This document shows, piece by piece, positions 15,449-39,544 of a stretch of DNA of 64,000 nt (position 1 is the first letter of the stretch; each line of letters begins with the position of its first letter). The notes beneath the pieces were generated by a model. That model worked only from the letters and a program-made list of their open reading frames with translations. It made no database searches and was not told the DNA's origin. The position numbers and the translations under genes were made by a program. This DNA is from Bacteroidales bacterium. Its GTDB lineage: Bacteria; Bacteroidota; Bacteroidia; Bacteroidales; WCHB1-69. The DNA is taken from assembly GCA_017395245.1 (NCBI GenBank), contig JAFPVR010000091.1, forward strand, positions 17,072-81,071. Reading direction: 5' to 3'.

Positions 15449-15476
15449 ATAACCTATAACCCATAACCCATAACCA
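15449..15476 (+). repeat. ATAACCN heptad array A (4 units)
   Basis: ATAACCT ATAACCC ATAACCC ATAACCA, ending 8 nt before GTG 15485. Confidence 0.9.
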
Positions 15477-15484
15477 TTACAACA

Positions 15485-16072
15485 GTGGAGTGCTACAGCG
15501 TTGACATGAGAGTGGATTCGTTGGTGAAGCGGTGGATGGACCGCAACTTCAAGACCGACCACGGACGCTACCGCTTCGGCGACAGTTGCTACTATGGCCT
15601 GGTGAGTGCCATGCTGTGCCAGTCGCCGAGGGTGGGCAACCCCGCTGTGGTCCCCGACAAATACGCCCGCTTCGTGCCGGTGAAAGTCTGCATAACCGAA
15701 TACGACTTCTACCATTACGGCTGGGAAGTGAGCATCACTCAGGAGCTCCGCTTTTCCCGCCTGGTGCGCAACATTCTCATAGACGAATGCCTGCGTAGCG
15801 CGGCCATGCTCCGCGCACGTTACGACATTCCCCTGTCGCAGGCCATCAACAGCTTCACCGTCTGGTACGGTCTCACCGATGACGACGTGAATCCCGACAC
15901 CCTTCGCAAGACGTACCAGCGCAAATACAAGTCCGTGGAAGAGGACTACCGTGCCTTCGACCGTGCCGCCGTCACCGACTTCGGCAGGTTGGATGCCGAT
16001 CCGCCTCAGCGGCATCTGCGCTTGCACAAATCCCGGTACCGGGATCCTCACCATTTGAATCTTTCCTTTTAA
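15485..16072 (+). CDS. Hypothetical protein (GTG start; alternative ATG at 15506)
   Basis: ORF. A TATCTTTG -7 box lies at 15421-15428. Confidence 0.5.
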   Translation: MECYSVDMRVDSLVKRWMDRNFKTDHGRYRFGDSCYYGLVSAMLCQSPRVGNPAVVPDKYARFVPVKVCITEYDFYHYGWEVSITQELRFSRLVRNILIDECLRSAAMLRARYDIPLSQAINSFTVWYGLTDDDVNPDTLRKTYQRKYKSVEEDYRAFDRAAVTDFGRLDADPPQRHLRLHKSRYRDPHHLNLSF

Positions 16073-16094
16073 TAACCAATACAACAAACTGAAT

Positions 16095-16544
16095 ATGAAA
16101 GATATAAAAAGAGCATGTTATATTGATAAGAAACCAGGAATCAGCAGACTTTGGTACGTCTCCGTGGAGGAGGTGCAGTCGTTGGCCTTCACTGCCGAGG
16201 ACACCGTCTCCGTCACCCTGAAGCCCGGCGGCCGGTGGGGCGAAATCCACGGCAAGCGCACTACCGCCGCCAGCGACTGGGACCGCCGATTCGACAACCG
16301 CATCCAGACCACGCTTCCCGGTTGGACGATGCAGGACGCCGTAGGCATCGGCCGTCTCGTCCATGGCCGCTACTTGGTGAAATGGACCGACCATGCTGGC
16401 GACACCCGGCTGTGCGGCTACGGCGAGCCGCTGCATTTGGCCATTGCGCAGACCGCACCCGAGACCCCTGCGGAATACCAGGGCATCATGCTCACCTTCA
16501 GTTGCGAGAGCGAGTTCGGTTTTCTGAAATTAGTTGAAATTTGA
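16095..16544 (+). CDS. Hypothetical protein
   Basis: ORF only. Confidence 0.5.
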   Translation: MKDIKRACYIDKKPGISRLWYVSVEEVQSLAFTAEDTVSVTLKPGGRWGEIHGKRTTAASDWDRRFDNRIQTTLPGWTMQDAVGIGRLVHGRYLVKWTDHAGDTRLCGYGEPLHLAIAQTAPETPAEYQGIMLTFSCESEFGFLKLVEI

Positions 16545-16563
16545 AATTTTCAACTACCAACAA

Positions 16564-16614
16564 ATCAGCGTCTTGCATTGTCCCAACAGTTTTTCGCGCC
16601 CCGTAGTATTTTTG
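16564..16614 (+). promoter_or_regulatory. Phage promoter motif copy 1 (ATCAGCGTCTTGCATTGTCCCAAC-N19-TATTTTTG)
   Basis: Shares a 24-bp identical block with 22866-22889, at a fixed 19-nt distance from the -7 box. Confidence 0.55.
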
Positions 16615-16636
16615 CGGCCGAAAAACTTTACAGACG

Positions 16637-17728
16637 ATGACAAGACAATTTCTGAATATCACCCAGCTCTCGGCCAACAAGGCCCGTATCGAAATCGACG
16701 GCACCATCGGCGGCTTCGACTGGGACACCTGGAAACGGAAGAACACCGGCGCCGGCATCCGGAAGCAGCTCAAGGAGATCGACAACCTGAAGGTTGACGA
16801 GATCGAGGTGCTCATCACCTCTTTGGGGGGCATCGTGGATGAAGCGTTGCAGATCCACGACGCGCTGAAATCGCATCCGGCCAAAATAACCACTATCGTG
16901 CAAGGTTACTGCGCCAGCTCGGCCACCATCATTGCCTGTGCCGGCGACCGTCGCATCATCTCCCCCAACGCTTTGTATCTCATCCACAAGTGTTGGAGCA
17001 ACGTTGGGTACGCCAACGAAAATGACCTGGAAGCGGAGTTAGACGATCAGCGCACCGTTAACGGCACGATCTTCAACATCTACAAAGGGGTGCTGAAGAA
17101 AGACGAGGCCGACCTCCGCGCCCTGTTCGAAGCCAACGACGGCGACGGCAAGTGGATCACCGCCGAGGATGCCCTGGCTTTTGGCTTCGCCACCGAGATC
17201 CAGGAATTCGAGAACGAGAACAAAAAAACGGCAAGTGGAATGGCGCGGTTCCTGAACCGCGCCCGCGTCCTCTTCCCGGTTGTGAACAATATCCCTAACT
17301 ATAACCAAAACCCCACCGACATGAAGAAATTCCTGATGAGTTTCGCCATGCTGGGCGCACTCCTTTGCATGAAGGAGGATGCCGAGTATGACGAAAAGGA
17401 AGGTCTGAAGCTCAATCCCGAGCAGCTGCAGACCGTGGAGGATGCCTTGAAGGCCTACGATGGCCTCAAGACGAAAGCCTCCAAGACAGAGAGCGATCTT
17501 CAAGGCGCGAAGGATGCCTTGGCCACCGCCGAGAAATCCGTCGCAGACAAAGACGCCCTCATTGCCACCCTCACCGCCGAGCGCGACGACTACAAGGCCA
17601 AGTACGAGAACGCCCCCGCCAATGTGCCGGGCGTGAACGGAAAGGATGTGGAGCTGGATGAACAATCCATCGAGGACTACGTCAACAACAGTCCTGTGTA
17701 TCAAGAAATTTTCAAAGAAAACTTCTAA
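16637..17728 (+). CDS. ClpP-like (S14) prohead protease fused to a coiled-coil scaffold-like C-terminal region
   Basis: VLITSLGGIVDEALQIHDAL...GYCASSATIIACAGD...LYLIHKCW. Confidence 0.8.
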   Translation: MTRQFLNITQLSANKARIEIDGTIGGFDWDTWKRKNTGAGIRKQLKEIDNLKVDEIEVLITSLGGIVDEALQIHDALKSHPAKITTIVQGYCASSATIIACAGDRRIISPNALYLIHKCWSNVGYANENDLEAELDDQRTVNGTIFNIYKGVLKKDEADLRALFEANDGDGKWITAEDALAFGFATEIQEFENENKKTASGMARFLNRARVLFPVVNNIPNYNQNPTDMKKFLMSFAMLGALLCMKEDAEYDEKEGLKLNPEQLQTVEDALKAYDGLKTKASKTESDLQGAKDALATAEKSVADKDALIATLTAERDDYKAKYENAPANVPGVNGKDVELDEQSIEDYVNNSPVYQEIFKENF

Positions 17729-17731
17729 GCC

Positions 17732-18826
17732 ATGCCCGAAACCAACATAAACACTGATCTTATCGTAGAAGAATACGGTCGGATCTATCAGCAGAGAGGT
17801 CAGGGGCTCGACCGCATCAAACGCGCCCTGATCCAAAAGTCCGAGACTCTTGAAAAATATGCCATCCACAAGAGAATCACCGACGACATCTATGAGATGG
17901 CCAACGACGAGTTCCAGCCGGTGCTCCAGCCGTTCCGTGTCCCCTTCGAACCGACCGGCGGTGTGAAGTTCTACCCGAACCCCATCGTGCTCCAGCACAT
18001 CAAGGTGGATCTCAAGATTTCCCCCGACCAAATCATCGACGGTTGGCTCGGCTTCCTTGAAGGCAAAGGGGTCGATCGTTCCCAGTGGCCCATCACCCGT
18101 TATATGGTCGAAGTCTATCTGAAGCAGCAGATTGACTACGACCGTGAGGTGAACGCCGTTTACTACGGCGAGCGCGACGACAACGGAACCTCTCCGTCTT
18201 CCTGCATGGACGGCATCCGCAAGAAGCTCATCTTGGGTGCGCAGGACGACTATCCCATCAACGTCATCGATGGTGTCGGTGCGCTTCAGCCGGACACCTG
18301 CTTCGACCAAGTGGAGAATTTCTCCAAGAAGATCAAAGCCATCTATCGCGGCGTTCCGATGATCATCTGCGTATCTCAGGAATACGAACGCGCCTTCCTC
18401 GAGAACAAGCGTGCCAACGGTTTCTACTGGCTGCACGGTCCCGAGGATCTCAACGCCTCCGTCGATTTCACCAAGCAGGTGGTCATGGGCCTTCCGTGCA
18501 TGGACGACAGCACGGACATGTTCGCGTTTGTCAGAGGCAACCTCATGTGGTTGACCCGCAAGGACAAGTTCAACTTCGACATCCAGAAAGAAGACCGCTA
18601 CGTCAAAATCCTCGGCGACTGGCGCGAGGGTATCGGCTTCGGCGTGAACAAGATGGTGTGGGCCACCAAAGAGACTGTCACGACAACGACCTCCGGCGAC
18701 GGCCAAGGTAGCGGTCAAGGTAACGGCCAAGGCAACGACCAAGGTAACGGCCAAGGCGACGACTCTGGCGAAACCCAAGGCGACGACTCTGGCGAAACCC
18801 AAGGCGACGACCAGAACAACGGCTAA
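17732..18826 (+). CDS. Putative major capsid protein with a G/Q/D/N-rich repetitive C-terminal tail
   Basis: Position immediately after the protease/scaffold gene. 364 aa. C-terminus SGDGQGSGQGNGQGNDQGNGQGDDSGETQGDDSGETQGDDQNNG. Confidence 0.6.
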   Translation: MPETNINTDLIVEEYGRIYQQRGQGLDRIKRALIQKSETLEKYAIHKRITDDIYEMANDEFQPVLQPFRVPFEPTGGVKFYPNPIVLQHIKVDLKISPDQIIDGWLGFLEGKGVDRSQWPITRYMVEVYLKQQIDYDREVNAVYYGERDDNGTSPSSCMDGIRKKLILGAQDDYPINVIDGVGALQPDTCFDQVENFSKKIKAIYRGVPMIICVSQEYERAFLENKRANGFYWLHGPEDLNASVDFTKQVVMGLPCMDDSTDMFAFVRGNLMWLTRKDKFNFDIQKEDRYVKILGDWREGIGFGVNKMVWATKETVTTTTSGDGQGSGQGNGQGNDQGNGQGDDSGETQGDDSGETQGDDQNNG

Positions 18827-18828
18827 GC

Positions 18829-18884
18829 ACAGGGAACGGGCGCGGGGTGATGGCATATCCGTTGCACCGCGCCGCCCTGTTTTC
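18829..18884 (+). terminator. GC-rich hairpin plus T-run after the capsid gene
   Basis: ACAGGGAACGGGCGCGG...CCGCGCCGCCCTGTTTT. Confidence 0.55.
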
Positions 18885-18922
18885 AATCATTCATTATTCA
18901 ATCACTTAAAAACTGAAAAATC

Positions 18923-19534
18923 ATGCCTGAAGAAAATACCAACCAGTGTCCCGCGTGCCTCGAAGACCTGGCACGTCCCACCACCTGTGAACAGGTCATG
19001 GGCGGTGTTGTAACCGAATTCCTGTTGGGCTTGAAGGAAGATGTGGCCACTTGGCCGAAAAAGAAGGACGCAGCCCTGCGTACCTCCATGGCCGACCATG
19101 TAGAAACTCAACCATCCTCGAAGCTCACCATGAAGCCCGGAAAACGCCTGTTCAAAATCAGCGCAAAGAAAGGGTCATCTGAACTCAAGTACGAGCTCCA
19201 AGGCGAGAGCGGTTCCAAATCGTACAAAGCCTCTTTGGAGAACAACATTCCCGGTCTCCGCGCAAAAGCGCTCGGACTGCTGGCCGCCGTTTCCAACCAG
19301 GAACTGGTGATTCTCCCCAAGACCAAATCTGGCGATGTCCATCTGCTCGGCGACGAGTCGGAGGGTGCGGAACTCGAATCCGCCAGCGCCGTTTCCGGCA
19401 AGACCGGCACAGACGCCAACGGCGCCGATGTGGTCTTCTCCACCGACGTGCCCGCCCCCACCATCTATATGGGCGACAACTGGGACGAGCTGCAGGTGCC
19501 CGCCGGCGAGTCCGATGACAACGACGGCGAATAG
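18923..19534 (+). CDS. Putative virion structural protein
   Basis: ORF in the late operon; acidic C-terminus. Confidence 0.4.
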   Translation: MPEENTNQCPACLEDLARPTTCEQVMGGVVTEFLLGLKEDVATWPKKKDAALRTSMADHVETQPSSKLTMKPGKRLFKISAKKGSSELKYELQGESGSKSYKASLENNIPGLRAKALGLLAAVSNQELVILPKTKSGDVHLLGDESEGAELESASAVSGKTGTDANGADVVFSTDVPAPTIYMGDNWDELQVPAGESDDNDGE

Positions 19535-19587
19535 CCACGTTTTTTTTCTCTCTCAACCATATTGGTAATAGTATTTCATTTGTTTGG

Positions 19588-19618
19588 AAAGAGCTTCCTC
19601 TCCCGGGAAGCTCTTTTT
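19588..19618 (+). terminator. Rho-independent terminator
   Basis: AAAGAGCTTCC-loop-GGAAGCTCTTT followed by TT. Confidence 0.6.
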
Positions 19619-19640
19619 CGAACGGCAATCAACTCCTGAC

Positions 19641-20507
19641 ATGAACGATATACAACAATGGCTCGACAATCCCGGCCACGACTACTCCGCCGGCGTCACC
19701 CTCTTCGCCCGTTACAGCAAGAACAGGGCGCTGGTGCGCTATTTCCAATCCGGAACCGCCCGGTTCCGGATGGGGAAACTGGTTTACGAGATGGGGAAAC
19801 TGGTGAAGACGACACCATCGGCGAAACGCATCGTAGAGACGCAAAATTTTGCGTCTCTACAACCACAGCAATCGGAACGGCCTCGTGTAACATCCGAGGT
19901 TACTTCCGAGGTTACTTCCGAGGTTACTTCCGAGGTTACTTCCGAGGTTTCTCTTCCGAGGTTTATCCTCGATGCCAAGAAGGAGGTGGCCTCCCTCTAC
20001 ACCCTCATCGACAAACGGCACCGGGAACTGTACGACCTGGGCACCTCCAATGCCGATGACGTGGTGCGCAAACGGAAGAAGATCCTCGACGGGCGCAAGC
20101 CCGCCATCGATCGTGCCGACCGCCTCTACCGACTGAAGGAGGCGTGGATCAAGCTGGAAGACGGCCCCGCCCGGGAACGGGTGGCCAGCGATATCCGGGA
20201 GTTGCTGGCCGCACCATGGAAGGAGCAGCCGACGATGGTCGCACCCGTAGAGACGCGCCATGGCACGTCTCTACGATCCGACGTGTCCGGGTTGTCCGAC
20301 CTTAACCTCACCAATCGCCGCTCCGCCCTCCGTTCCTCCATCACCAAGGCTCAGAACATGCTGCAGTACCAGACCATCCGCAAGGGAGACTCCCCTACCC
20401 CGATGCCGCCCGGACCGAAACGCGACGAGTATGAACGGAAACTGGCCGCGCTGAAGGCGGAGCTGACAGCCGTGTGTGACGAGCTGGAAAGGAGGAAACC
20501 GGCATGA
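19641..20507 (+). CDS. Hypothetical protein carrying two REP palindromes and two tandem repeats in frame
   Basis: ATG at 19641. The peptide contains IVETQNFASLQ, (TSEV)x5 and PVETRHGTSLR. Confidence 0.5.
   Translation: MNDIQQWLDNPGHDYSAGVTLFARYSKNRALVRYFQSGTARFRMGKLVYEMGKLVKTTPSAKRIVETQNFASLQPQQSERPRVTSEVTSEVTSEVTSEVTSEVSLPRFILDAKKEVASLYTLIDKRHRELYDLGTSNADDVVRKRKKILDGRKPAIDRADRLYRLKEAWIKLEDGPARERVASDIRELLAAPWKEQPTMVAPVETRHGTSLRSDVSGLSDLNLTNRRSALRSSITKAQNMLQYQTIRKGDSPTPMPPGPKRDEYERKLAALKAELTAVCDELERRKPA
19833..19860. repeat. REP-like palindrome copy 3 (perfect 28-bp GTAGAGACGCAAAATTTTGCGTCTCTAC)
   Basis: Read directly in the sequence; lies inside a CDS. Confidence 0.9.
19893..19966. repeat. 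12-bp tandem repeat (TCCGAGGTTACT) x5-6
   Basis: Encodes the TSEV repeats. Confidence 0.9.
20247..20274. repeat. REP-like palindrome copy 4 (GTAGAGACGCGCCATGGCACGTCTCTAC)
   Basis: Inside a CDS. It is the reverse complement of copy 5. Confidence 0.9.
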
Positions 20508-21103: not shown

Positions 21104-21106
21104 TCT

Positions 21107-23568: not shown

Positions 23569-24034
23569 AGGTGGATATTTGGGCGGGTCGAGTTCTGGTA
23601 CAGGAGACTCTTCAATTGGCTTCAAAAAGACATACGAAAGTGATAACGGAGGCACCGTTTATACGGAAAAATCAAGAATTGAGCAATCCAATATAAACAA
23701 GCAGGAAAAAGCCAAATATGAAAAGGAGCATGATATGTGCAAACATTTGGCTGACAATGGGCATGATATAGTTCATCTTGATGACAGAAATCTATCGGAA
23801 GGCTCATACGATATATTGCTCGATGGAGAAAAGGCGGAGTTGAAGAGTATGAAAGGTACAACGAATATAGGCAGGGAAGGCAAAGATGCTATACGTAAAC
23901 AAAAGGCCGATTTTGTAGTGTTTAAATTCGAGAGCTTTTCTGCAAAAACAAATAGAGAAATCGAAAAATTAGTAAAGAACAACATACATGGATGCTATTA
24001 TGTTGAGGGGCAAAAAGGATTGGAATGGTTTTAA
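23558..24034 (+). CDS. Putative PD-(D/E)XK-like nuclease with a Gly-rich N-terminus (low GC)
   Basis: ...HDIVHLDD...YDILLDGEKAELKS... fits a D-x(n)-E-x-K arrangement. GGAAAGGAGG lies upstream of the ATG. Confidence 0.35.
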   Translation: MGGRGGYLGGSSSGTGDSSIGFKKTYESDNGGTVYTEKSRIEQSNINKQEKAKYEKEHDMCKHLADNGHDIVHLDDRNLSEGSYDILLDGEKAELKSMKGTTNIGREGKDAIRKQKADFVVFKFESFSAKTNREIEKLVKNNIHGCYYVEGQKGLEWF

Positions 24035-24162
24035 AATCAAGAAATCCCTGCTACAGCAAGGATTCCAGGGTGGTCCTTCCCCCGCTCAAGGCGAGTTGTA
24101 ATGAACCCTTCCGCGAAAACGGAATCGCGGCAAAAATACAAAAATTCTGAAAACCAATAAAT

Positions 24163-24546
24163 ATGGAATTGGAAATCGAACTAAAAAGCAAATACATGAA
24201 TCGCTTCAAACAGGAGTTTAACCGTGCCTGCCTGCAAATAGGGATTCCAGCATTGAGCGAGGATACCTGTGCCAAAATATTGGCGGTGGTATATCTCCAC
24301 GACAACGAGCAGTTCGCGTTCAGCGGCGCATTTGCTGCTGATATGGAGTACATTCAGAACCGCTATCACATACATGGCGCTGGAACACCGGAGGCCGACT
24401 TTGTGGACAAGGTGGTGCGTTACATCCACGAGCTGGAGGAATATGCCAGAACGCATGTGGAGGAATCCACGCAAAACGGTCTGTTCCCTGCCAAGCCACA
24501 ATGGGCAATCGAGATGTTTAGAAATATGTACGGAATAAGAATATAA
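24163..24546 (+). CDS. Hypothetical protein (low-GC island)
   Basis: ORF only. Confidence 0.45.
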   Translation: MELEIELKSKYMNRFKQEFNRACLQIGIPALSEDTCAKILAVVYLHDNEQFAFSGAFAADMEYIQNRYHIHGAGTPEADFVDKVVRYIHELEEYARTHVEESTQNGLFPAKPQWAIEMFRNMYGIRI

Positions 24547-24549
24547 GTC

Positions 24550-24900
24550 ATGGGCAGGAAAGAATACTCTTCGTGGTTTCGATGGACAGAGGAACGCTTG
24601 CGTTTTCTATATGAAAACTTTGCCAGTAATTCCAACCAAAGCATCGCGGACGCACTAGGCTGCAAAAAAAAATGCGTCATCGATAAGGCTCACAAATTGA
24701 GGTTGAAAAAGGACAATGATTATTTAGTCATGGCTCATGCACATGCTGGAATCCGTTATGGAATAAAGGGATGTAATCTTTCGGAAGATGCATTGTCCAG
24801 AAGAAAACAAACCAGGCAGAAAACCGTACATATTGAAAAAATAAGATTAAAATACGGTATTCATCAAAGGACAAATCTCAAATTAAAAAACATTTACTGA
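24550..24900 (+). CDS. Putative HTH DNA-binding protein (low-GC island)
   Basis: WTEERLRFLYENFASNSNQSIADALGCKKKCVIDKAHKLRL looks like a Myb/GcrA-type HTH. Confidence 0.4.
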   Translation: MGRKEYSSWFRWTEERLRFLYENFASNSNQSIADALGCKKKCVIDKAHKLRLKKDNDYLVMAHAHAGIRYGIKGCNLSEDALSRRKQTRQKTVHIEKIRLKYGIHQRTNLKLKNIY

Positions 24901-24901
24901 T

Positions 24902-25783
24902 ATGATTTACGGATATTTGCGTGTGTCGTCCGACGAGCAGGACGTAAACAGCCAGAAGCAGGGCGTTGAGGCTTTCGCGAAGGAGCATGGATGGACTATT
25001 GACGAATACATCTCTGATGAAGGCGTTAGCGGTGGCAAAGATCCCGACAAACGGAATCTCGGTCCGTTGCTGAAGAAATTGAAAAACAATGATGTTCTTA
25101 TTGCAGCAGAGATCAGCCGTTTGGGTCGTGACCTGTACATGGTAATGGACATCCTGCACTTCTGCATGGAGCGCGGCTGTGTAATCCACACTGTCAAAGA
25201 TCGATTCACATTGGGGGATGATATCCAGAGCAAAGTACTTGCTTTTGCTTTCGGATTGGCCGCTGAGATTGAACGTCAGATGATTCGTCAACGCACTCGT
25301 GAAGGTTTGAGATTAAGAATGAAAATGGGAGTACTGTTAGGTCGTCCTATTGGTTCTCCGAACAGTTTGGAAGCACAAAAATACGGTGAATGGAAGGACA
25401 AACTTAAACAAATGGTGGAATGGCAGATGGGACCGAGGCAAATAGCTAATGTTATTGGGTGTGACAGGAACACGGTGAACCGTCTTGTTGAAAGATGGGG
25501 TTACGACGAGCTGTGGAAATATAGAGCCAATTATGCCAAAAACGAAAAAGAGTATAGGGCTAAGCACCGTGTTCCAACGTACAAAGACGAACCTTATAAG
25601 ATAGTGCCGTTAGACCGAAAAAAGACAATTACTTGCATAGAAGCAGGCTTAACATTGCCGCAAATCGCAGAGCAAATGCCTGAGTTCTCGTATGAGCAGG
25701 TATATGATACGGTTCTTTGTGACAGTGAATTAAACACTCTCTATCGCCAGCACGCTCAAAAGAAGCTGGTGAAGAAGAAGTAA
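24902..25783 (+). CDS. Serine recombinase (resolvase/invertase family) with an extended C-terminus
   Basis: MIYGYLRVSSDEQ (catalytic Ser), ...ISRLGRD..., ...ERQMIRQRTREGL..., and HTH RQIANVIGCDRNTVNRL. Confidence 0.85.
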   Translation: MIYGYLRVSSDEQDVNSQKQGVEAFAKEHGWTIDEYISDEGVSGGKDPDKRNLGPLLKKLKNNDVLIAAEISRLGRDLYMVMDILHFCMERGCVIHTVKDRFTLGDDIQSKVLAFAFGLAAEIERQMIRQRTREGLRLRMKMGVLLGRPIGSPNSLEAQKYGEWKDKLKQMVEWQMGPRQIANVIGCDRNTVNRLVERWGYDELWKYRANYAKNEKEYRAKHRVPTYKDEPYKIVPLDRKKTITCIEAGLTLPQIAEQMPEFSYEQVYDTVLCDSELNTLYRQHAQKKLVKKK

Positions 25784-25967
25784 TCCCGCCCCACCCTCAT
25801 AGGGCCACCCCCTGTCATATTTCCTACCCGACCCGGGGTGGAAATTTCCATCCAAAGTAGGGCGAGCACCGGCACGATTGTCGCTCGACGCCTTTCGGAA
25901 AAAGTTGATTTTGGGTCAAAACGTTGAATTTTAGGAAAATGCGAAAAATTTCATGTTAAGAAATTCG

Positions 25968-26003
25968 TGTCCCATCTCGTTATGTGCGCCCGTTGTATTT
26001 TTG
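25968..26003 (+). promoter_or_regulatory. Phage promoter motif copy 3 (TGTCCCATC-N19-TATTTTTG)
   Basis: Same spacing as copies 1, 2 and 4. Confidence 0.5.
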
Positions 26004-27632: not shown

Positions 27633-28100
27633 ATGGAACCGAAATTATTCACATCCCAATTGAATGAGTACGCGGAGGAATTCAAGAGATATCTTCCCGT
27701 GAATATCAATCTGCGGTTCGAGACCGTGGCATCGCCACTGGCACTGTGCGAGGAAACATACCTCCGTCCGCTGTTTGGCAAAGCATTGTTCAACCGCATG
27801 GCCACCTACGTGAAAGACCACCCCACGCTGGACAGTGGAGATTCTGATTGCACCCTCATCGAAAAGACACGGTTCGCCCTCATCCGGTTAGCCGTCTGGA
27901 AAGACTACGACATCATTGCGGCCAACATCAGCGACACCGGTGTCTCTGCAGAGGTGGACAAAGAAAACCGCCTCTTCCGCTATCAGGAGGAGAACCTTAA
28001 ACGTGCCCTCAAGGAGGAAGGCTTTAACTATCTGGACAACATCCTGGAATTCCTTGAAGAAAATTCCCAAGAATTTCCGGAGTTCGAGCAGTCGGGATAG
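27633..28100 (+). CDS. Hypothetical head-completion/connector protein
   Basis: Position only. Confidence 0.4.
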   Translation: MEPKLFTSQLNEYAEEFKRYLPVNINLRFETVASPLALCEETYLRPLFGKALFNRMATYVKDHPTLDSGDSDCTLIEKTRFALIRLAVWKDYDIIAANISDTGVSAEVDKENRLFRYQEENLKRALKEEGFNYLDNILEFLEENSQEFPEFEQSG

Positions 28101-28625
28101 GTGTTGGAAAGCTCACAGTTGCTAATCCGTAACACCCGGATGTTCAACACCTATTATAATATAGACAACAGCCGCTTAGTGTTCCTGAAGATGCGTCACT
28201 ACATCCGCGATGTGGAACTTATCGAGCTGCAGCACCGCATCGGCAGGGAGTTCTACCAGGAGCTGCTCACCGCCGATGAGAGCCTGCCGAAGTACGAGGC
28301 CATCCTTTCGTACATCCGCAATTACATCGTGTATGCCTCCGTGGCCGAAGGCATCGGCGAGCTGCACAAGATGCCCACCGATAAAGGCTTGCTGTTCGAG
28401 ACCACCACTATGGACGGTGTGCAGGAGGCTCCGGTCTATCGTGCCCAGATTGCGGAAACCCGCCTTCGTTTCGCCCAGCGTGCCGAACAGTACCTGGCCA
28501 CCGCCCTCCACATCATCCGGAACGCGCCTGCAGACTATCCCGCATACGTCGGTTTCGCTGGCGACAGCCCTGAAGACGGCATTATCCACCGCGACAACAC
28601 CAACCGCAAAATCTTCCTCGCCTGA
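28101..28625 (+). CDS. Hypothetical head-completion/connector protein (GTG start; alternative ATG at 28140)
   Basis: Position only. Confidence 0.4.
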   Translation: MLESSQLLIRNTRMFNTYYNIDNSRLVFLKMRHYIRDVELIELQHRIGREFYQELLTADESLPKYEAILSYIRNYIVYASVAEGIGELHKMPTDKGLLFETTTMDGVQEAPVYRAQIAETRLRFAQRAEQYLATALHIIRNAPADYPAYVGFAGDSPEDGIIHRDNTNRKIFLA

Positions 28626-28628: not shown

Positions 28629-28656
28629 ATAACCAATAACCAATAACCCATAACCT
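28629..28656 (+). repeat. ATAACCN heptad array B (4 units)
   Basis: ATAACCA ATAACCA ATAACCC ATAACCT, ending 6 nt before ATG 28663. Confidence 0.9.
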
Positions 28657-28662: not shown

Positions 28663-29013
28663 ATGGACATCGTAACATTAATCGGCTACCTTATCACTCC
28701 GCTCACCGGGGCAATAGGCTGGATCTTCGGTCGCCGCCAGCGCCGGAATACCGCCATCCAGTCCCTGCAGAAAACCATCCAACTGCTCTCCAACACCATC
28801 CAAGACGACAATCAGAAGATTGTTAGCCTTATGAATGAAATTCAGGAGGTGCGCCGCGAGAATGCCGAACTCAAAGCCGGACAGAAGGAGCTGCTGGGCC
28901 AGATAGAGGCACTGAAAAGTGAGAACCGGGAGCTTAACGAACTTATCAGGGCAAACGGCATCAAGAAAGTGAAGCCCGCAATGCGGAAGGATTGGAAAGG
29001 AGACGCAGAATGA
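28663..29013 (+). CDS. Membrane-anchored coiled-coil protein (possible holin or lysis accessory protein)
   Basis: N-terminal TM IVTLIGYLITPLTGAIGWIF followed by heptad-rich sequence. Directly upstream of the endolysin. Confidence 0.35.
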   Translation: MDIVTLIGYLITPLTGAIGWIFGRRQRRNTAIQSLQKTIQLLSNTIQDDNQKIVSLMNEIQEVRRENAELKAGQKELLGQIEALKSENRELNELIRANGIKKVKPAMRKDWKGDAE

Positions 29014-29678
29014 ACGTAATCCGACACAATTTCCCCGCCACGCAATATGTGTGTGAGCGCACCGAGAAACGGCAGATCGTTCTTCATCACACCGCCAGTG
29101 GTCCGGGCGTGGACGGCGATATTGCCTGGTGGATGAAAACCCCGGAGCGGGTGGCCACCCACTTCATCGTCGATCGAGAGGGCAAGGTTCACCAACTCTT
29201 CGATGAGGAGTTCTGGGGCTACCACCTCGGACTGGCTCAGAAGGTCTTCACCCAGATGAAGCTGCCCTACAAGCAGCTCGACCGTCAGAGCATCGGCATT
29301 GAGATCGACAGCTGGGGTTATCTGGAACCGCACACCGACGGCCAGTTCTATCCGGCCAAGTGGAATGGCAGCCGCAGCGTGCCCAATACCGCCGCCAAGC
29401 CGGTGAAGTACTTCTACGAGTACTGCTCCAACCAAAAATGGAAGGGCCACCGCTACTACGAAAAGTACACCACCGCCCAGATCAATGCCGTGCGCGACCT
29501 GGTGCGCGAGCTGTGTACCCGTCACAACATCCCGAAGACCTACAATCCGGATATGTGGGAACTGTCAAAACGTGCCCTCACCGGCACGCCCGGCATCTTC
29601 GCCCACTGCTCCTACCGCACCGACAAAAGCGATATCCACCCGCAACCCGAAATGATTGACATGTTGAAGGCCTTATGA
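29010..29678 (+). CDS. N-acetylmuramoyl-L-alanine amidase (endolysin, Amidase_2/PGRP type)
   Basis: IVLHHTASG...THFIVDREGKVHQL...SIGIEIDSWG. Confidence 0.85.
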   Translation: MNVIRHNFPATQYVCERTEKRQIVLHHTASGPGVDGDIAWWMKTPERVATHFIVDREGKVHQLFDEEFWGYHLGLAQKVFTQMKLPYKQLDRQSIGIEIDSWGYLEPHTDGQFYPAKWNGSRSVPNTAAKPVKYFYEYCSNQKWKGHRYYEKYTTAQINAVRDLVRELCTRHNIPKTYNPDMWELSKRALTGTPGIFAHCSYRTDKSDIHPQPEMIDMLKAL

Positions 29679-32620: not shown

Positions 32621-32622
32621 CG

Positions 32623-33343: not shown

Positions 33344-33579
33344 AAGAAATGGAAAAGTTTGAATACAATAAAGCCGGCCATTGGAATGACCGGCTGTGCA
33401 TATTTCTTTCGGTGCCATCGGCACGTATTAGAATATTCTACCATCCCATGACTCTGTGCGAATCTTTTTGTAAAAGATTATCGCTGCAATAACTATCAAA
33501 ATGGTCTCTAACATCTCTTCAAAATTTTATCGCTGCAATAATACAAAAAAAATAAATACAATCCATAAAAAAAATCTCT

Positions 33580-36500
33580 ATGGCAAAGGAAGTAAATAAA
33601 AGGGTTAACGTTTGGATTAACGGCAAAGAGGTTGAAAACAACATCAAATCGATCCGTTCCGCCATGATTCATCTGACTAATCAGATGAACAAAATGGAAA
33701 TCGGGTCTGAGGAGTACATCCAAACCTCAAAGAAACTGCGGGACTTGAAAACGATTTACGATGAACATTGTAAATCGTTAAAAATGACGAATCAGGAAAT
33801 CGAGAATAACACCACCTCTTGGAAAAAGAACATCATTCATTGGGGAGCATTCTCCGCCACCGTCCAAGGAGCCTCCGCCGCAGTTCAACGCTTTATCTCT
33901 TCCACCCAGGAGTACGTCGATGCCTATGCCTCACTCGATGACGCGATGAGTGCGGTACAGAAGACCACCGGCATGACTCGCGAGGAGGTGGAACTGCTGA
34001 AAAACTCTCTGCAGAGTATCGACACCCGCACCTCTACCGAGCAGCTGCTGAAGATCGCTGAAATCGGTGGCCGTATGGGGTTGGCAAAAGAAGAAATCCG
34101 CGATTTCACCGAAGCGGTCAACAAAGCCAACGTCGCCCTGGGCGATTCCTTCCAAGGAGGAGCGGAAGAAATATCCTCCATCCTCGGCAAAATCAGTCTC
34201 GCCTACAAGGAAACCCGCGACCAGAACATAGGACAGTCGATCACCCAGATTGGCTCAGCCCTGAATGAAGTTGGCGCGTCTGCCAATGCCACTGAAGGCA
34301 ATATCGCTTCCTTCGTGCAGCGCGTTGGCAGTATGCCGGAAATGTTCCGCCCAACCGTTGAACAAGCCATCGCCCTGGGTGCCGCGTTTGAGGAAAGTTC
34401 CATCGACGCGGAAGTGGCCAGTCGCGCATTCGGCATCGTGATGATGAAAGCCTCCACCAATGTGGAAGGTTTCGCTGCCGCCATGCACCGCCCTGCGGAA
34501 GAGATCGAGGAGTTAATCAATACCAATCCCGCACAATTCTTCGTGGAGTTTGCAGAATCGCTGAACGGGCTGAAGGGCACAGAGATCGGTTCTGTACTCA
34601 AAGATCTGAAGCTGAATGCCGACGGTGTAAACAAAATCATCGGTGCAATGAGTACCAACACCGAGCGTTTCACCGAAATACTTAACACGTCAAACACAGC
34701 CTTTGCAGAGGCCATATCGCTTGACAACGAGTATGCAGTTGTTAATGAGAATGCAGCCGCCCAATTGGAGAAAGCGAAGAAGGCCGTGCTGGATGCCAAA
34801 GCGGCACTGGGAGAGGAGCTGATTCCTGTAATCACGGAGTTGACCAAGGGGACAGCGTCAAGCATCAGAGTGTTGGGTGAAGTCGTGAAGTGGATGTTGG
34901 AACACAAGAATCTGATCAAGACGTTGGCCGCGGCATACGGTTTATTGTATGCCGCACACATGAAAGAGGTCGCGGCAAAAAAGCTGTCAACGGCTTGGAC
35001 AAAAGCGGAAATGGCCGGTGAGTCTGCCGGAACAGTTGTCACCAGTCTCTTTGCGTTGGCAAAGGCAAAGCTCGCCAAAAACACTCTGGCGGCCGCCAAT
35101 GCACAAAAGGCCTTGAAAGTCGCTTTTGCAGCCACTCCATGGGGAGCTATAATCACCGCTGTTCTAACACTGGCCACCGCATTTTCTTTCTTCCGCAGCA
35201 AAACAGATGAAGCGGCTGAAGCCCAGCAAAATTTGGAGGAACAGATCACTCAGCAGTACAATGCGGAGAAAAAGAAGGTGGAAGATCTTCAGAAGATCAT
35301 TGAGAACGAAAACTCCACCCGGGACCAGAAACTGAAAGCTATCAAGGAACTGAAAAAACTCATCCCCGATTATGTTGCAGAGTTGGACAAAGAAGGCAAG
35401 GTGGTGAACAATAACAAAAACGCCATCAACGATTACCTGGTTGCACTGAAAAACAAAATTCGATACCAAAGTCTTGAAAAAGCCCTGAACGAGACCCAGA
35501 ACAAGATAGTGGAAGCCGAACTGAAAGACAAAAAAGCCAGGGATGCCTATTTTGCCCAAGGATGGGGGGCTGAAGTCTGGGATAAGACGAAATCGTTCCT
35601 ATTTGGTGGATGGTCGAAAGAAGATGTGATGAAGAATGCAGATGCGGAGCTTCAGGGATTGTACGATCTCCGGGCTGAGTACAATAAGAAGATGGAGGTA
35701 ATGGATAAGGAGTTGAAGGATAAAACGGGGAAGACCTATCGTGAACTTTACAACGACAATTTACTGTCTTCACTGGACGAGAACAATCCACCGGGTTCTG
35801 GCTCCGGCTCCGGAAATGCACCAGACAAAAAAACGATCACCGCCCGCGAAAACTTCCACAAAGAGCTCCTGCAGATGGAAAACAAAGCGCAGGCCGATAC
35901 GCTCGAAGGATGGGAGAAAACCAAGCAGGAAATTGTCAACAAATACGATGAATTGCTTACAGAGGCCGCAAAACTCTACGGCAAGGATTCCGAAGCCTTC
36001 AATAAGGTGTTACAGATGAAATCGGACGCCATCACCGCCGCCGGACAAAAGTACCTTGAAAAGTACGGAAAAACCCTTGAAGATTTTTCCCAGAAATTTC
36101 AGACCTGGCAGAAAGAGACTGCCCCGGAAGGAAAGAACGAGATGGTGGATGCCGTCATCGGCACCCGGCAGAAGTGGATCCAACGCACCAACGAGGTCTC
36201 CGCACAAATGTCAGAACTGCTCGACCTGCGTGAACAGTTCGTGAAAGACAACGTTGACACCACCTCCCTCGACGCGCTCATCAACAAGCTCGGCGATGAG
36301 ATGAACGGCATGGCCGACATGGAGGCAAAGGACATCCAGAAGACCTTGGAGAAATACCAGGCGCAGACCGACGACTTCATCAAAGCGGAACAGAAATCCA
36401 TCACCGACGCCACCCTCACTGAAACCCAGCGGCAGAAAAACGCCATCCGGGAAAGATACGAGCTGGAAATCCAGCTCGTCGAGAAGCTGAAAGCCGCCCG

Positions 36501-37527
36501 AAAAGCTGAAGAGGGCGATGATGCCGATGTGTCGGATCTGGAATCCAAAATCAAAGAACTGAGGGAACTGCTCGACAAGCAGCTTGGCAACGTTGACAAG
36601 GCAGCCGCTTCCTCCGGACAGAAATCCGTCTGGCAGCAGCTCGCCGAGTTCGACTGGAGCAAGATGAGCGAGAACTGGCAGTCCGCACTCGGACTCATGA
36701 GCCAGGGACTGCAGGAGTTCGCCAGCGTCGCCTTCGACATCTACGGCTCCATCGCCCAGATCCAGGACAATATGATGGAGGCTGAGCTTCAGCGCACCCA
36801 GGAGGCTTACGACGCTAAGGCCGCCGCCCTCCAACGCCAGCTCGACCAGGGCGTAATCTCCCAAAAGGCATACGATGCCAAGATGCAGAAGCTCACTGAA
36901 GAAAAGGAGAAGAAGGAAAAGAAACTGAAACATGAGCAATTTGCCCGGGAAAAGGCGGCCAACATCATCCAGGCCCTCATCAACGGCGCACTGGCCATCA
37001 CCAACATCTGGGCGCAATGGGCTGGCCAGCCTATCGTGGCCGCCGTGCTCACCGCCGTGGCTGCCGCCTCCAACGCTGTGCAAATTGCAGCTATCGCCAC
37101 CCAGCCTAACCCCTACGCCAAAGGCGGCTACATCCGTGGACGGCAGTACGCCGTGATGGGCGAGCAGGGCGACGAGTGGGTGGCCAGCAACAAGCTGCTG
37201 CGTGACAAAGAGGCCTCAGCTGTCATCGCTGCCCTCGACGACTACCAGAAGGGCAACCGCAACGCCCTCGCTGGCATCTCATTCGCCGGGCCCGACCCAA
37301 AAATCATGTCCCAAGCCGTCTCCGGAAACGGACGTACTTTTGCACCGTCAAACCAGACCACCAACAACTACTACCAGAACCCGGACAACTCGGAACTGCT
37401 CAAGGAGATACGGAAGATGAACGACTTTCTGCGCGACCCCAACAACCGCCGCGCCTACATCAGCCGGAAGATCCAGTTAGAATTCGACGAACAGGAGGAG
37501 GAAATCAGGTCTATGGCGAGACTATAG
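33580..37527 (+). CDS. Tail tape measure protein
   Basis: 1315 aa, alpha-helical and coiled-coil rich with hydrophobic central segments. Position upstream of the distal tail genes. Confidence 0.85.
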   Translation: MAKEVNKRVNVWINGKEVENNIKSIRSAMIHLTNQMNKMEIGSEEYIQTSKKLRDLKTIYDEHCKSLKMTNQEIENNTTSWKKNIIHWGAFSATVQGASAAVQRFISSTQEYVDAYASLDDAMSAVQKTTGMTREEVELLKNSLQSIDTRTSTEQLLKIAEIGGRMGLAKEEIRDFTEAVNKANVALGDSFQGGAEEISSILGKISLAYKETRDQNIGQSITQIGSALNEVGASANATEGNIASFVQRVGSMPEMFRPTVEQAIALGAAFEESSIDAEVASRAFGIVMMKASTNVEGFAAAMHRPAEEIEELINTNPAQFFVEFAESLNGLKGTEIGSVLKDLKLNADGVNKIIGAMSTNTERFTEILNTSNTAFAEAISLDNEYAVVNENAAAQLEKAKKAVLDAKAALGEELIPVITELTKGTASSIRVLGEVVKWMLEHKNLIKTLAAAYGLLYAAHMKEVAAKKLSTAWTKAEMAGESAGTVVTSLFALAKAKLAKNTLAAANAQKALKVAFAATPWGAIITAVLTLATAFSFFRSKTDEAAEAQQNLEEQITQQYNAEKKKVEDLQKIIENENSTRDQKLKAIKELKKLIPDYVAELDKEGKVVNNNKNAINDYLVALKNKIRYQSLEKALNETQNKIVEAELKDKKARDAYFAQGWGAEVWDKTKSFLFGGWSKEDVMKNADAELQGLYDLRAEYNKKMEVMDKELKDKTGKTYRELYNDNLLSSLDENNPPGSGSGSGNAPDKKTITARENFHKELLQMENKAQADTLEGWEKTKQEIVNKYDELLTEAAKLYGKDSEAFNKVLQMKSDAITAAGQKYLEKYGKTLEDFSQKFQTWQKETAPEGKNEMVDAVIGTRQKWIQRTNEVSAQMSELLDLREQFVKDNVDTTSLDALINKLGDEMNGMADMEAKDIQKTLEKYQAQTDDFIKAEQKSITDATLTETQRQKNAIRERYELEIQLVEKLKAARKAEEGDDADVSDLESKIKELRELLDKQLGNVDKAAASSGQKSVWQQLAEFDWSKMSENWQSALGLMSQGLQEFASVAFDIYGSIAQIQDNMMEAELQRTQEAYDAKAAALQRQLDQGVISQKAYDAKMQKLTEEKEKKEKKLKHEQFAREKAANIIQALINGALAITNIWAQWAGQPIVAAVLTAVAAASNAVQIAAIATQPNPYAKGGYIRGRQYAVMGEQGDEWVASNKLLRDKEASAVIAALDDYQKGNRNALAGISFAGPDPKIMSQAVSGNGRTFAPSNQTTNNYYQNPDNSELLKEIRKMNDFLRDPNNRRAYISRKIQLEFDEQEEEIRSMARL

Positions 37528-37533
37528 GTTTCA

Positions 37534-37568
37534 ATAACCTATAACCCATAACCAATAACCAATAACCA
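37534..37568 (+). repeat. ATAACCN heptad array C (5 units)
   Basis: ATAACCT ATAACCC ATAACCA ATAACCA ATAACCA, ending 9 nt before ATG 37578. Confidence 0.9.
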
Positions 37569-37577
37569 TTCAAGAGG

Positions 37578-39146
37578 ATGCAGATCAGGAAGAGACCATA
37601 CAAGATCGATTTCGCGGGCAACGACCCTGAATTCGTGCTGCGTACTACGCCGTGGCACCAGCAGGGGCGTTGTGTGTCGAAAACCTACCTGGTAAGTCGC
37701 CTTCCCAAGGGTTCCCTGCGGCTCAGCTATGGTGTTGGGTCGGACTACAGGGTATGGGAATGGAATGTGACGGCCAGTGCCGGTGACGCACTCTACGACA
37801 TGCTTGCCGCCCCGTCAGGAACCGCTTCTGCCATGCTTGACATCCTGGAAGGCAAACTTCTGCCAAATCCTGACCTGCGACCGTTCTTCGACATATCGGC
37901 CCATGTAGACAATGGACAGTTATACGTGAAAATCACATCAAAGGAGCCTGAATCGAAGAATCTATCCTTTGTTTATTCCGAGAACGCAAACCTTACCGCT
38001 GTAACGGTGGCCGAGGGCGTGTCGGGCATCAGCCAGAAGCCGAAACCCAACTACCGAGTGCTGGCATTCTTCGCAGGCCATGCAGCCGGACAACAATTCC
38101 GGACACCTGATATGATGTTGGAGGAGAGCAACGGCGATGTACACATCGACTGCTCCCTGCTCAACGCCTGGTTCCCGAAGCCCGACATCCCCGTGTTGGA
38201 GGAGTTCTATGAGGCGAAGGCCTGTCCGGCCGCTATACTCACCGCACGGCTCTGGTACGGTGAGATGTACGCCGACGATACGGATTCCACACCCATACTG
38301 CGCACTCTCGATCGCAGTCCTCAAGTGACGCTGCTCAACGGCAGGGTTTCCCAATATGCCGCCGACAACAACATCCCGGACTGGGTGGCCTGCAACGACG
38401 ACCACCTCCATCTGAAATCCGGAGTGGATATCCTTGGCCAGAACAACGGGGAAACTGTCATTGTGCCTTCCGGCGTGGAGCAGTACATCTACCTGTACAA
38501 CTACGGCACGGTTAACAGGACCGTGCGTGTACAGGTTCGAGCCACATTTGCCGACGGCTTCACAGACGATGGCTGGCGGGATAAGAACCTGACCATCGTG
38601 CCCGGGGTGAATCGTCTCACCGTAAGAGAGGATGATGCCGTGGCATGGACGGTAAAGATAACAAATTACACATTCCACATCACCATCACCCGCCACTACG
38701 TGGTGAAGGAATTTGAATATGGATTCCACACCTTCCTGATGCTCAACGCGCTCAACCTCTATGAGAGCTTACCCGTGGAGTTCCTTGCCAGGGAAGAGCA
38801 GACCGAAGGCGAGCGGCGCATAATCGCCGGAGTGGACAGCTACGGCACCACCGACCGTCAAACCGTCTTCACCGCCCGTTGCCTTCCTCGCAACGCCTCC
38901 GGACTGAAGCTGCTGCGTACCGCCTTCGACAAGCAGGACAACCTGCTATTGGAGGGTCAATACGCCTGGTACATTGACATGATACCCGGAAGCATCACTT
39001 TAAGTGACGAAAGCAATTTCCTGTCCGAATGTGAGTTCAAGTTCCGCTTACGCGAGAAAGTGAATCGTAAACCGCAAGTCTTTGAACTGACAGACGGACT
39101 TGACACCACATCGCAAATTCTGAAACAAGACACCGTTTTTAAATAA
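37578..39146 (+). CDS. Putative distal tail protein
   Basis: Position after the tape measure gene. Confidence 0.45.
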   Translation: MQIRKRPYKIDFAGNDPEFVLRTTPWHQQGRCVSKTYLVSRLPKGSLRLSYGVGSDYRVWEWNVTASAGDALYDMLAAPSGTASAMLDILEGKLLPNPDLRPFFDISAHVDNGQLYVKITSKEPESKNLSFVYSENANLTAVTVAEGVSGISQKPKPNYRVLAFFAGHAAGQQFRTPDMMLEESNGDVHIDCSLLNAWFPKPDIPVLEEFYEAKACPAAILTARLWYGEMYADDTDSTPILRTLDRSPQVTLLNGRVSQYAADNNIPDWVACNDDHLHLKSGVDILGQNNGETVIVPSGVEQYIYLYNYGTVNRTVRVQVRATFADGFTDDGWRDKNLTIVPGVNRLTVREDDAVAWTVKITNYTFHITITRHYVVKEFEYGFHTFLMLNALNLYESLPVEFLAREEQTEGERRIIAGVDSYGTTDRQTVFTARCLPRNASGLKLLRTAFDKQDNLLLEGQYAWYIDMIPGSITLSDESNFLSECEFKFRLREKVNRKPQVFELTDGLDTTSQILKQDTVFK

Positions 39147-39163
39147 ACCAAACACCGAACGAA

Positions 39164-39541
39164 ATGATTTCATTTTTCCTCAAAATCTGGACATTCTTGA
39201 AAAAGTATCTGAAATGGATACTTGGTGCGATAGCACTCATCATTATCATCATTGTATGGTCGGTTGCCGGCAGCAAGGGCAAGCAGCTGAAGGAGGCCGA
39301 CACGCAGATCCAGGTGCTGCAGCAGCAGGTCATCACCCAGCAGGAGCTAATCCAGAAGCTGGCGGCCATGGAAAGCGTACACTGCGAAGTGAGCCTCACG
39401 GTGAAGAACACCGCCGTGATGGGCGCGAACCATTCCGGTGCCGTCACCCAGGAGGCCGAACAGATTGCCACCTACCTGCGCGGTGAAATTCTCGAAAAAA
39501 TCATGACAGACGAAAAGGCCTCAATAACCAATAACCATTAA
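39164..39541 (+). CDS. Membrane-anchored coiled-coil protein
   Basis: TM WILGAIALIIIIIVWSV followed by a Q-rich coiled coil. Confidence 0.45.
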   Translation: MISFFLKIWTFLKKYLKWILGAIALIIIIIVWSVAGSKGKQLKEADTQIQVLQQQVITQQELIQKLAAMESVHCEVSLTVKNTAVMGANHSGAVTQEAEQIATYLRGEILEKIMTDEKASITNNH

Positions 39542-39544
39542 CCA
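39524..39544 (+). repeat. ATAACCN heptad array D (3 units, overlaps the CDS 3' end)
   Basis: ATAACCA ATAACCA TTAACCA, ending 8 nt before ATG 39553. Confidence 0.85.

Follow-up and report, generated by a model that had tools for sequence, protein, structure and literature searches.

ATAACCN heptad arrays ahead of prophage genes are copies of a dispersed element of herbivore-gut Bacteroidales

Why would a prophage carry the same short, G-free tandem repeat ahead of several of its genes? The question is raised by a 64,000-nt stretch of contig JAFPVR010000091.1 (positions 17,072-81,071; Bacteroidales bacterium, assembly GCA_017395245.1), referred to below as the window, in which a sequence-only reading had picked out four arrays of the heptad ATAACCN. 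The window contains a prophage, with genes for a primase, a head protease, an amidase, a tape-measure protein and an integrase, and its flanking host proteins (S1, a dipeptidase, an AMP-binding protein and FtsH) are named "Bacteroidales bacterium." We found that the four arrays are real and far from a chance pattern. They are copies of a polar element, GCTTCA-(ATAACCN)3-ATAACC-ATTA, which measures about 35 nt and is dispersed in the host lineage, herbivore-gut Bacteroidales. In its sense orientation the element may serve as an unstructured, start-codon-free leader for translation initiation independent of Shine-Dalgarno (SD) pairing, a reading that we hold to be about evenly balanced between right and wrong.

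All four arrays lie on the + (coding) strand, and none contains a G. Array 1 (15449-15476) consists of four units, ATAACCT ATAACCC ATAACCC ATAACCA, flanked by gcttcG and ATTA. Array 2 (28629-28656) also has four, ATAACCA ATAACCA ATAACCC ATAACCT. Array 3 (37534-37568) has five, ATAACCT ATAACCC ATAACCA ATAACCA ATAACCA, between gtTTCA and ATTC, and array 4 (39524-39544) has two exact units and a degenerate third, ATAACCA ATAACCA TTAACCA. A search of the window with the two-unit pattern ATAACCNATAACC, allowing at most one mismatch, returned 12 matches, all of them at the four arrays, compared with 0.14 expected by chance; none of 100 shuffled sequences reached 12. Tandem Repeats Finder recovered all four as period-7 repeats. 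Thus, the coordinates, strand and G-free composition first read from the letters stand.

The arrays end 8, 6, 9 and 8 nt before GTG15485, ATG28663, ATG37578 and ATG39553, respectively. The latter three starts agree with gene calls made independently on contigs that are identical or related, and for them the spacing of 6-9 nt originally proposed is borne out. At array 1 it is ambiguous. The gene there is called either from GTG15485 (Prokaryotic Genome Annotation Pipeline, 195 aa) or from ATG15506 (188 aa, in the same 90% cluster); the second call makes the spacing 29 nt, and the position of GTG15485 is occupied by TTG in one relative. An SD-like site is lacking before 15485, 28663 and 39553. 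The sequence AAGAGG occurs between array 3 and ATG37578, with (A)AGAGG in the related prophages L227 and L334 and no such site in L305 and L231 (L numbers denote the loci compared with the window).

All arrays had been described as intercistronic, which is correct for arrays 2 and 3. Array 2 fills the 37-nt gap between the TGA stop of a DUF6712 gene (28623-28625) and a 116-aa gene, and array 3 lies in the 50-nt gap behind the tape-measure gene (33580-37527). Array 4, in contrast, overlaps the final 18 nt of an open reading frame (ORF) at 39164-39541, the TAA of its third unit being the stop of that ORF. Array 1 stands in a 476-nt gap. Because a terminator-like hairpin (15048-15065) and a Bacteroidetes-type -7 box (TATCTTTG, 15421-15428, + strand) precede it, the box by 20 nt, this array is probably part of a primary 5' untranslated region; the promoter role of the box is assigned from the consensus only, and the region around it is conserved in relatives. 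Arrays 2-4 occupy nearly the whole gap between their genes (gaps of 11-50 nt), so they are no more fixed in position with respect to the start that follows than to the stop that precedes.

To place the arrays in a wider context, we scanned three collections. A scan of IMG/VR for three-unit arrays gave 107 loci, none of them related to the window phage. A scan of one genome per species gave at least 117 loci; among those listed, 57 belonged by record title to Bacteroidota and 33 to filamentous Cyanobacteria. A metagenome scan for TTCA followed by three units gave at least 120 loci, many with several copies, yielding 177 distinct arrays in 953 kb; all figures below that refer to the 177 arrays, to the 117 four-unit arrays or to the N position are counts among the metagenome matches listed. 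The loci of herbivore-gut Bacteroidales are L116-L224 and L238-L357, and the prophage relatives are L227-L234, L235-L237, L305 and L334. The relatives were traced through 90% protein clusters and exact look-ups, except for L305 and L334, which turned up by chance in the metagenome scan.

The arrays that the genome scan found in herbivore-gut Bacteroidales resemble those of the window. They have 3-6 units, a mixed N and the flanks (G)CTTCA and ATTA, and the record names of their carriers include RUG, Sheep_Rectum, Horse_feces and Red_deer. In the window, the canonical flanks are present at arrays 1 and 3. The number of units per copy was three in 48 arrays, four in 117, five in 7 and more than five in 5. 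The N position held A 250 times, C 132, T 129 and G 4 (of 515), with preferences that depended on the unit (A at 66% of N1, T at 53% of N2 and A at 52% of N3), and the same N recurred in all units of just 17 of the 117 four-unit arrays. Given the four-unit mode, the conserved flanks and the mixed N, this is a stereotyped element and not a free-running microsatellite. It is also not a device of the phage. Copies abound in host chromosomes ahead of housekeeping genes, which is why we rejected the idea of a site for a phage-specific regulator; others follow stops or precede promoter boxes. Arrays were also present in L046, L092 and L095, which are unrelated phages from the same host group.

The copies fall into several classes by their position relative to genes. 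Fifty-eight of the 177 (33%) were sense copies 3-20 nt before an ORF beginning with ATG, and 20 stood 21-80 nt before one. Forty-nine (28%) were antisense, directly behind a reverse-strand ORF, and in 33 of these the TTA of the ATTA flank was the stop codon of the ORF. Ten (6%) lay 10-15 nt upstream of a TAnnTTTG box, and 40 were unclassified. The long ORFs neighboring the listed copies were both sense in 48 cases, both antisense in 37, divergent in 27 and convergent in 13. Sense and antisense arrays sometimes stood back to back (L136, 4347-4407; L318, 1234-1260 plus an inverted array upstream), and the resulting long inverted repeats would form hairpins in either of the transcripts.

A search of phage and host genomes for the distance between arrays and starts, suggested along with the original observation, showed that sense copies lie a few nucleotides before starts far more often than antisense copies. 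Among the matches listed, those within 15 nt of the start numbered 35 sense and 0 antisense before ATG ORFs in the first data sets (p = 6e-11), and 53 and 5, respectively, in the metagenome set; the distances from array to start peaked at 4 and at 7-10 nt. Ten downstream ORFs were checked and matched Obg, IspF, MutL, LeuRS, LepA, asparaginase, XylA, PanD, GpmA and L2 from residue 1-10, so these ten starts are real N termini. The downstream genes have no common functional theme. This strong sense bias beside starts indicates that translation at least filters the placement of the element.

The four arrays are among the longest G-free runs of the window and are unpaired in predicted folds, in agreement with the earlier expectation that they would form no stable structure. 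For three of the four starts that follow an array, the predicted fold of the region from -40 to +25 had an energy of -2.5 to -3.7 kcal/mol, whereas the averages were -6.9 kcal/mol for other start regions and -14.4 kcal/mol for random positions. The array sequence is devoid of AUG, GUG and UUG and contains UAA in all three frames. A separate feature was seen at array 3 (37523-37546), where TATAGGTT, which spans the TAG stop of the tape-measure gene, is the reverse complement of AACCTATA in units 1-2 of the array; the predicted fold has a hairpin of 8 bp (z = -1.8 over the 81-nt region).

The analysis supports an uncultured host that belongs to the SD-less Bacteroidales. In 40 phage genes without arrays, positions -25 to -1 contain 41% A and 17% G, compared with 27.5% and 26% in the phage region overall, and an SD-like triplet is found in only 6 of these genes. 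The element sits at the distance from the start at which this lineage keeps A-rich, G-poor sequence. The TAnnTTTG box is enriched in the window, with 40 matches against 22.5 expected. Such a pattern is that of SD-independent initiation as known from Prevotella and Flavobacterium (PMC3155529; PMC6847099). In Prevotella, SD use is absent, the SD is reported to be non-functional, an unstructured leader is required, and S1 has been proposed as its reader (PMC3155529). In Flavobacterium, structure and A-rich upstream positions tune initiation, and AUG is depleted near starts (PMC6847099). For Bacteroidales, start selection through an unstructured, low-GC leader and S1 binding has been proposed (PMC3155529; PMC6847099).

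These features suggest how the sense element might work. All four prophage copies are sense, and the mRNA would bear each of them as a leader or an intercistronic spacer directly before a start codon. In an SD-less lineage, the array would most likely be the translation initiation region itself. The A/C-rich, G-free stretch would be unable to fold on itself, leaving the start codon single stranded, and the lack of AUG, GUG and UUG together with UAA in three frames would make that codon unambiguous for loading of the 30S subunit, presumably with the assistance of S1. We infer that the array would promote initiation, beyond merely permitting it.

Several results weigh against this reading. The antisense copies after stops and the copies before promoters make up 28% and 6% of those listed, and on account of them translation cannot be the sole reason for the existence of the element. 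G was found at N in 0 of 145, 0 of 27 and 0 of 108 units in the antisense, promoter and unclassified contexts, respectively; since G is excluded in every context, freedom from G belongs to the element and need not reflect translational selection. The ATTA end lies at the boundary of a coding sequence (CDS), whether start or stop, in 91 of 177 arrays, and the GCTTCA end in 29. The starts that bear arrays are no less structured than the best of those without. Finally, prophages of the L231 type have no array after the tape-measure gene, and the window has none at a junction where L231 has two units. Thus, the SD-less host and the sense bias speak for the proposed SD-independent leader, and the antisense and pre-promoter copies speak against it as a full account. 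Together with the exclusion of G and the four-unit length, the latter two classes mean that translation explains only part of the picture and keep a repeat or a factor-binding array alive as rival explanations.

Comparison with the related prophages shows how stable the arrays are. At the array 1 junction, L235-L237 have four units, as does the window, with one core substitution in L235. At the array 2 junction, where the window has four units, L227-L230 have CTAACTA plus three units, and L231-L234 have ATAAACA ATAAACC CTAAACC TTAAACC, in which the period and the TAA are kept and the unit is changed. After the tape-measure gene, the window has five units, L334 and L305 have four, L227 and L229 have three degenerate units, and L231-L234 have none; the comparison of copy number among relatives, which had been recommended, therefore gives 5, 4, 4, 3 and 0. 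The array 4 junction reads ATAACCA ACAACCA ATAACCA in L334, ATAACCA ATAAACC ATAACCT in L305 and ATTAACC CTTAACC in L231, with a single unit in L229. Before a 125-aa gene, L231 has two units that were seeded at the preceding TAA stop (ttcaaATAACCCATAACCC), and the window has no array. A G-free, heptad-like leader is thus kept at three junctions despite a change of unit (ATAAACN, TTAACCN). The arrays were identical in three near-identical sequences (the window and two other contigs), and array 3 was the same in the near-identical contigs L108 and L109. Hence the arrays drift but are not hypervariable, and their absence or decay at the same junctions in close relatives means that they are dispensable. 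At the DUF6712 junction, the sequences upstream differ between L231 and the window, with no clean insertion boundary.

A number of conventional roles were considered and rejected. The arrays are not SD elements, as a sequence that lacks G is unable to pair with the CCUCC core at the 3' end of the 16S rRNA. Their composition (33% C, 0% G) fits a Rho utilization (rut) site. Such sites are C-rich, G-poor, unstructured RNAs of roughly 60-80 nt or more, however, and the arrays measure 21-35 nt, with arrays 2-4 lying between translated genes. A G-quadruplex on the complementary strand, (GGTTATN)4 with four GG tracts, was not predicted by ViennaRNA with its G-quadruplex option, and the model energy for two tetrads and 15 loop nucleotides is +12.8 kcal/mol. 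A cassette of stops in three frames is unsuited as the main function, since three of the four arrays in the window come after the upstream stop and the TAA can be explained by seeding at TAA stops, as in L231; we retain it as a side benefit only. TAA is present in every unit, and among the listed copies, 19 upstream ORFs end within an array. A microsatellite generated by slippage, of the kind of the cyanobacterial short tandemly repeated heptanucleotide sequences (STRR) or long simple sequence repeats (LSSR), should have homogeneous units and a broad range of copy number, and neither was found, though the number does vary among the prophage relatives.

The rival that we consider somewhat unlikely, and yet the most serious, is a neutral or selfish dispersed repeat (STRR-, LSSR- or REP-like) that spreads by some form of copying or slippage. 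Sense copies would be merely tolerated near starts, G-rich antisense copies would be harmful there, and the phage genes would draw no benefit. Period-7 arrays of many families do fill the intergenic DNA of these genomes (91 in about 330 kb, including the host part of the window), copies occur in all orientation classes with respect to the neighboring genes, arrays are gained, lost and decayed among close prophage relatives, and the genes downstream share no function. Heptanucleotide repeats are, moreover, the commonest class of long simple sequence repeats in bacteria, by the account of Mrazek 2007 that is given in PMC4679880. Free slippage would not be expected, however, to produce the peak at four units, the conserved flanks, the preferences at N, the scarcity of arrays with a homogeneous N or the near absence of G from that position, and the sense bias at starts points to a translational filter at least. 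The defined length of four units, the conserved ends, the restriction of N to A, C or T whatever the context and the polarity of the element, with its ATTA end against a CDS boundary, would suit a different explanation, in which the array offers four sites in a 7-nt register to a factor that binds single-stranded RNA or DNA and marks gene boundaries or regulates the flanking gene. A spacing of 7 nt is ill suited to one face of a DNA duplex, which we counted in favor of a single-strand factor. S1 with its four mRNA-binding OB domains, a Csp-like or RRM protein, or an oligomer could be the factor, and the same idea has been put forward for the TAACTGA repeats discussed below (PMC4679880). We nevertheless regard such a binding array as quite improbable. 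No RNA-binding match was found among the phage proteins searched, and no candidate factor emerged; the cores drift in the phage relatives (CTAACTA, GTAACCA, ATAATCA, ATAAACN) with the junction kept; and the occurrence of both orientations relative to transcription is awkward for a reader of RNA.

Two further explanations are, in our estimate, very unlikely. Slippage that changes the number of heptads could in principle tune or switch the downstream gene, as the sequence-only reading had suggested, and the junction after the tape-measure gene, where 5, 4, 4, 3 or 0 units occur and five and three differ by two units, is what one would cite for such contingency loci. The data do not favor it: near-identical contigs in other samples show no difference in the arrays, array 1 has four units in all relatives, the units are not homogenized, and their heterogeneity at N suppresses slippage. 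The population mode is sharply fixed at four, and the arrays lie outside coding sequences and promoter spacers, where a change would have no obvious switching effect. An equally slim chance attaches to the arrays as recombination linkers at module boundaries between co-infecting phages or prophages. Identical motifs of 20-35 bp do occur at the junctions of blocks (replication/late, head/lysis, tape measure/distal tail) and in the unrelated phages of the same host group, and MacGregor suggested a role in rearrangement for long arrays (PMC4679880). Most copies, though, are in host chromosomes at ordinary housekeeping genes, no mosaic breakpoint coincides with an array among L227-L234, L305 and L334, and direct repeats within one genome would cause deletions, none of which was seen.

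The ATAACCN element is one of many heptad families in these genomes. We counted 91 period-7 arrays in the roughly 330 kb of Bacteroidales loci and window, about one per 3-4 kb. Unit families such as ATTCTAC, AATGAAG, TTGGCTN and TAAACTN recur across genomes, and their arrays are often concatenated into entire intergenic regions (e.g., L117, 4380-4545; L130, 5569-5757), in which the ATAACCN block sits nearest the start. In the searchable literature, we found no description of such recurring period-7 families in herbivore-gut Bacteroidales. The host DNA beside the prophage has intergenic heptad arrays of its own, at 52488-52530, 52556-52586, 54113-54152 and 54217-54247. A TAAGACT-like array starts at the stop codon of rpsA, and each of its units has a stop triplet either right at its beginning or one base away. 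A promoter box (TACCTTTG) is preceded, at 13 nt, by an ATTCTAC array of 4.4 copies, and ATTCTAC also occurs in L216. Between convergent genes, GTGATCA-like arrays stand in inverted orientation on the two sides of a hairpin terminator. In L267, the end of the orthologous gene bears the ATAACCN element instead.

The genes that follow the arrays in the prophage are mostly without family matches. The gene after array 1 (15485-16072, + strand) has none and is the first of a block that runs into the head protease gene (16637-17728). The 116-aa gene after array 2 (28663-29013, + strand) matches hol-like and Rz-like spanin families of PHROG, though weakly, and is directly followed by the amidase gene (29010-29678). 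The 522-aa gene after array 3 (37578-39146, + strand) and the 261-aa gene after array 4 (39553-40338, + strand) have no family match. Relatives of the 522-aa protein were not found in IMG/VR, a distant-mode nucleotide search of INPHARED phages with 33580-39600 gave no match, and a flank-anchored scan of Joint Genome Institute metagenomes for alleles of array 2 (CTCGCCTGATCT N12-42 CATGGACATCG) gave 0 matches. Rfam 15, at the gathering threshold, identified just two tRNAs in the window and nothing at the arrays.

Some other features of the prophage deserve mention. The likely attachment site is a tRNA gene (50262-50333, - strand) that adjoins the integrase gene (49018-50136, - strand), and the first host gene past them encodes ribosomal protein S1 (50526-52490); a second tRNA gene is at 3057-3129 (- strand). 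The DUF6712 structural gene (27633-28625) is split into ORFs of 155 and 174 aa by an in-frame TAG at 28098-28100. In related prophages, this codon reads TAC (Tyr) and the gene is a single one of 330 aa; here, the prophage is probably decaying and the TAG a nonsense mutation. Near the left side of the prophage, at 5630-5694, 3.1 copies of a perfect 21-bp repeat, ATTTGAGCGTCTTTTTCTTTA, stand in tandem and may represent an operator or an iteron array. Coding sequences contain tandem repeats of 12 and 24 nt at 18699-18811 and 19893-19963 (ORFs 17732-18826 and 19641-20507), giving short peptide repeats in those proteins. An island of low GC content at 24000-26000 (0.45, compared with about 0.55 on both sides) contains a gene for a serine recombinase or DNA invertase (24902-25783); L231 has a tyrosine integrase gene at a similar position.

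What follows for the question posed at the outset depends on which reading is right. In Bacteroidota, where starts are chosen without functional SD pairing, a stereotyped 35-nt leader would be a natural, portable test object and a candidate expression part for gut and rumen Bacteroidales. In the uncultured Bacteroidales of herbivore guts, much intergenic DNA is built of short, recurring heptad families, an unreported feature of genome architecture, with the ATAACCN element alone occurring in well over a hundred metagenomic contigs. Should the element be tolerated filler, the pattern first noticed would still be explained: the prophages would share the repeat content of their hosts. Should it be a factor-read signal for gene boundaries or ribosome recruitment, its interest would exceed that of the phage arrays themselves. 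One might combine the parts into a joint reading, in which GCTTCA-(ATAACCN)4-ATTA would be a discrete, lineage-specific signal with hundreds of copies per genome, read in a register of four by seven nucleotides by a dedicated single-strand-binding factor (S1 being one candidate). It would mark CDS boundaries and act as a portable ribosome recruitment module that phages have adopted for their late genes, as one of a wider set of heptad signals whose other families stand after stops and before promoters. We consider this larger picture unlikely.

How does the element compare with known systems? Repetitive extragenic palindromic sequences and bacterial interspersed mosaic elements (REP/BIME) are short (about 35 nt), abundant, intergenic, located at gene ends and found in either orientation; they are folding, imperfect palindromes associated with a RAYT transposase. 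The ATAACCN element is like them in its length of about 35 nt, its great abundance and its intergenic location at gene ends in both orientations. It differs in being a non-palindromic tandem repeat, and we know of no enzyme associated with it. The CAA-rich omega leader of tobacco mosaic virus and the CA-repeat enhancers of Escherichia coli are G-less, unstructured leaders with SD-independent initiation and reported S1 binding. Their units are 3 or 2 nt long, they have been studied in E. coli and plants, and they show no genomic dispersal. Mazel, in 1990, reportedly described the cyanobacterial STRR, which share the 7-nt period, the intergenic location and the presence of several unit families per genome, and ATAACCA arrays are in fact common in Microcoleus, Tychonema and Calothrix among the listed matches of the genome scan. 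The cyanobacterial arrays, however, resemble products of slippage in being homogeneous and long, with up to 18 units in the loci scanned, whereas the Bacteroidales element is short, with about four units, and heterogeneous at N. The SD-independent initiation regions of Bacteroidetes are likewise A-rich, G-poor, unstructured and poor in AUG, without SD pairing and with S1 proposed to act (Accetto and Avgustin 2011, PMC3155529; Baez et al. 2019, PMC6847099). They consist of ordinary, non-repetitive sequence, recognized by its composition and a few positions; here, the entire region before unrelated genes is a stereotyped tandem repeat.

The closest parallel is with the TAACTGA heptamer repeats. 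The belief that no described element matches the arrays was mistaken in kind, as these repeats, which lie just upstream of starts in marine Beggiatoaceae, Cyanobacteria and a few Bacteroidetes, were described in 2015 by MacGregor (PMC4679880). A literature search with the element sequence retrieved unrelated primers alone, and a search for heptamer repeats in Bacteroidetes retrieved this paper alone, without a description of the ATAACCN element in either. Both elements have a 7-nt unit in 2-6 tandem copies, mostly forward, a few nucleotides before starts. The TAACTGA repeats usually come without an SD, and an SD-like site is lacking at three of the four window arrays. Both contain stops in the three forward frames, and some sets of both reach into the final part of an ORF upstream. 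Both occur in ribosomal protein operons (here before rplB) with no theme among the downstream genes, and for both the same translational hypothesis, binding by S1 or Csp proteins, has been advanced as a hypothesis. The ATAACCN unit differs in being G-free with one free position, TAACTGA containing G, and the element also differs in its sharp copy number of four, its conserved GCTTCA and ATTA ends, its large class of antisense copies after stops and its carriers, which are herbivore-gut Bacteroidales and their prophages. By its sequence features, then, the ATAACCN element is the same in kind as the TAACTGA repeats but a different sequence family.

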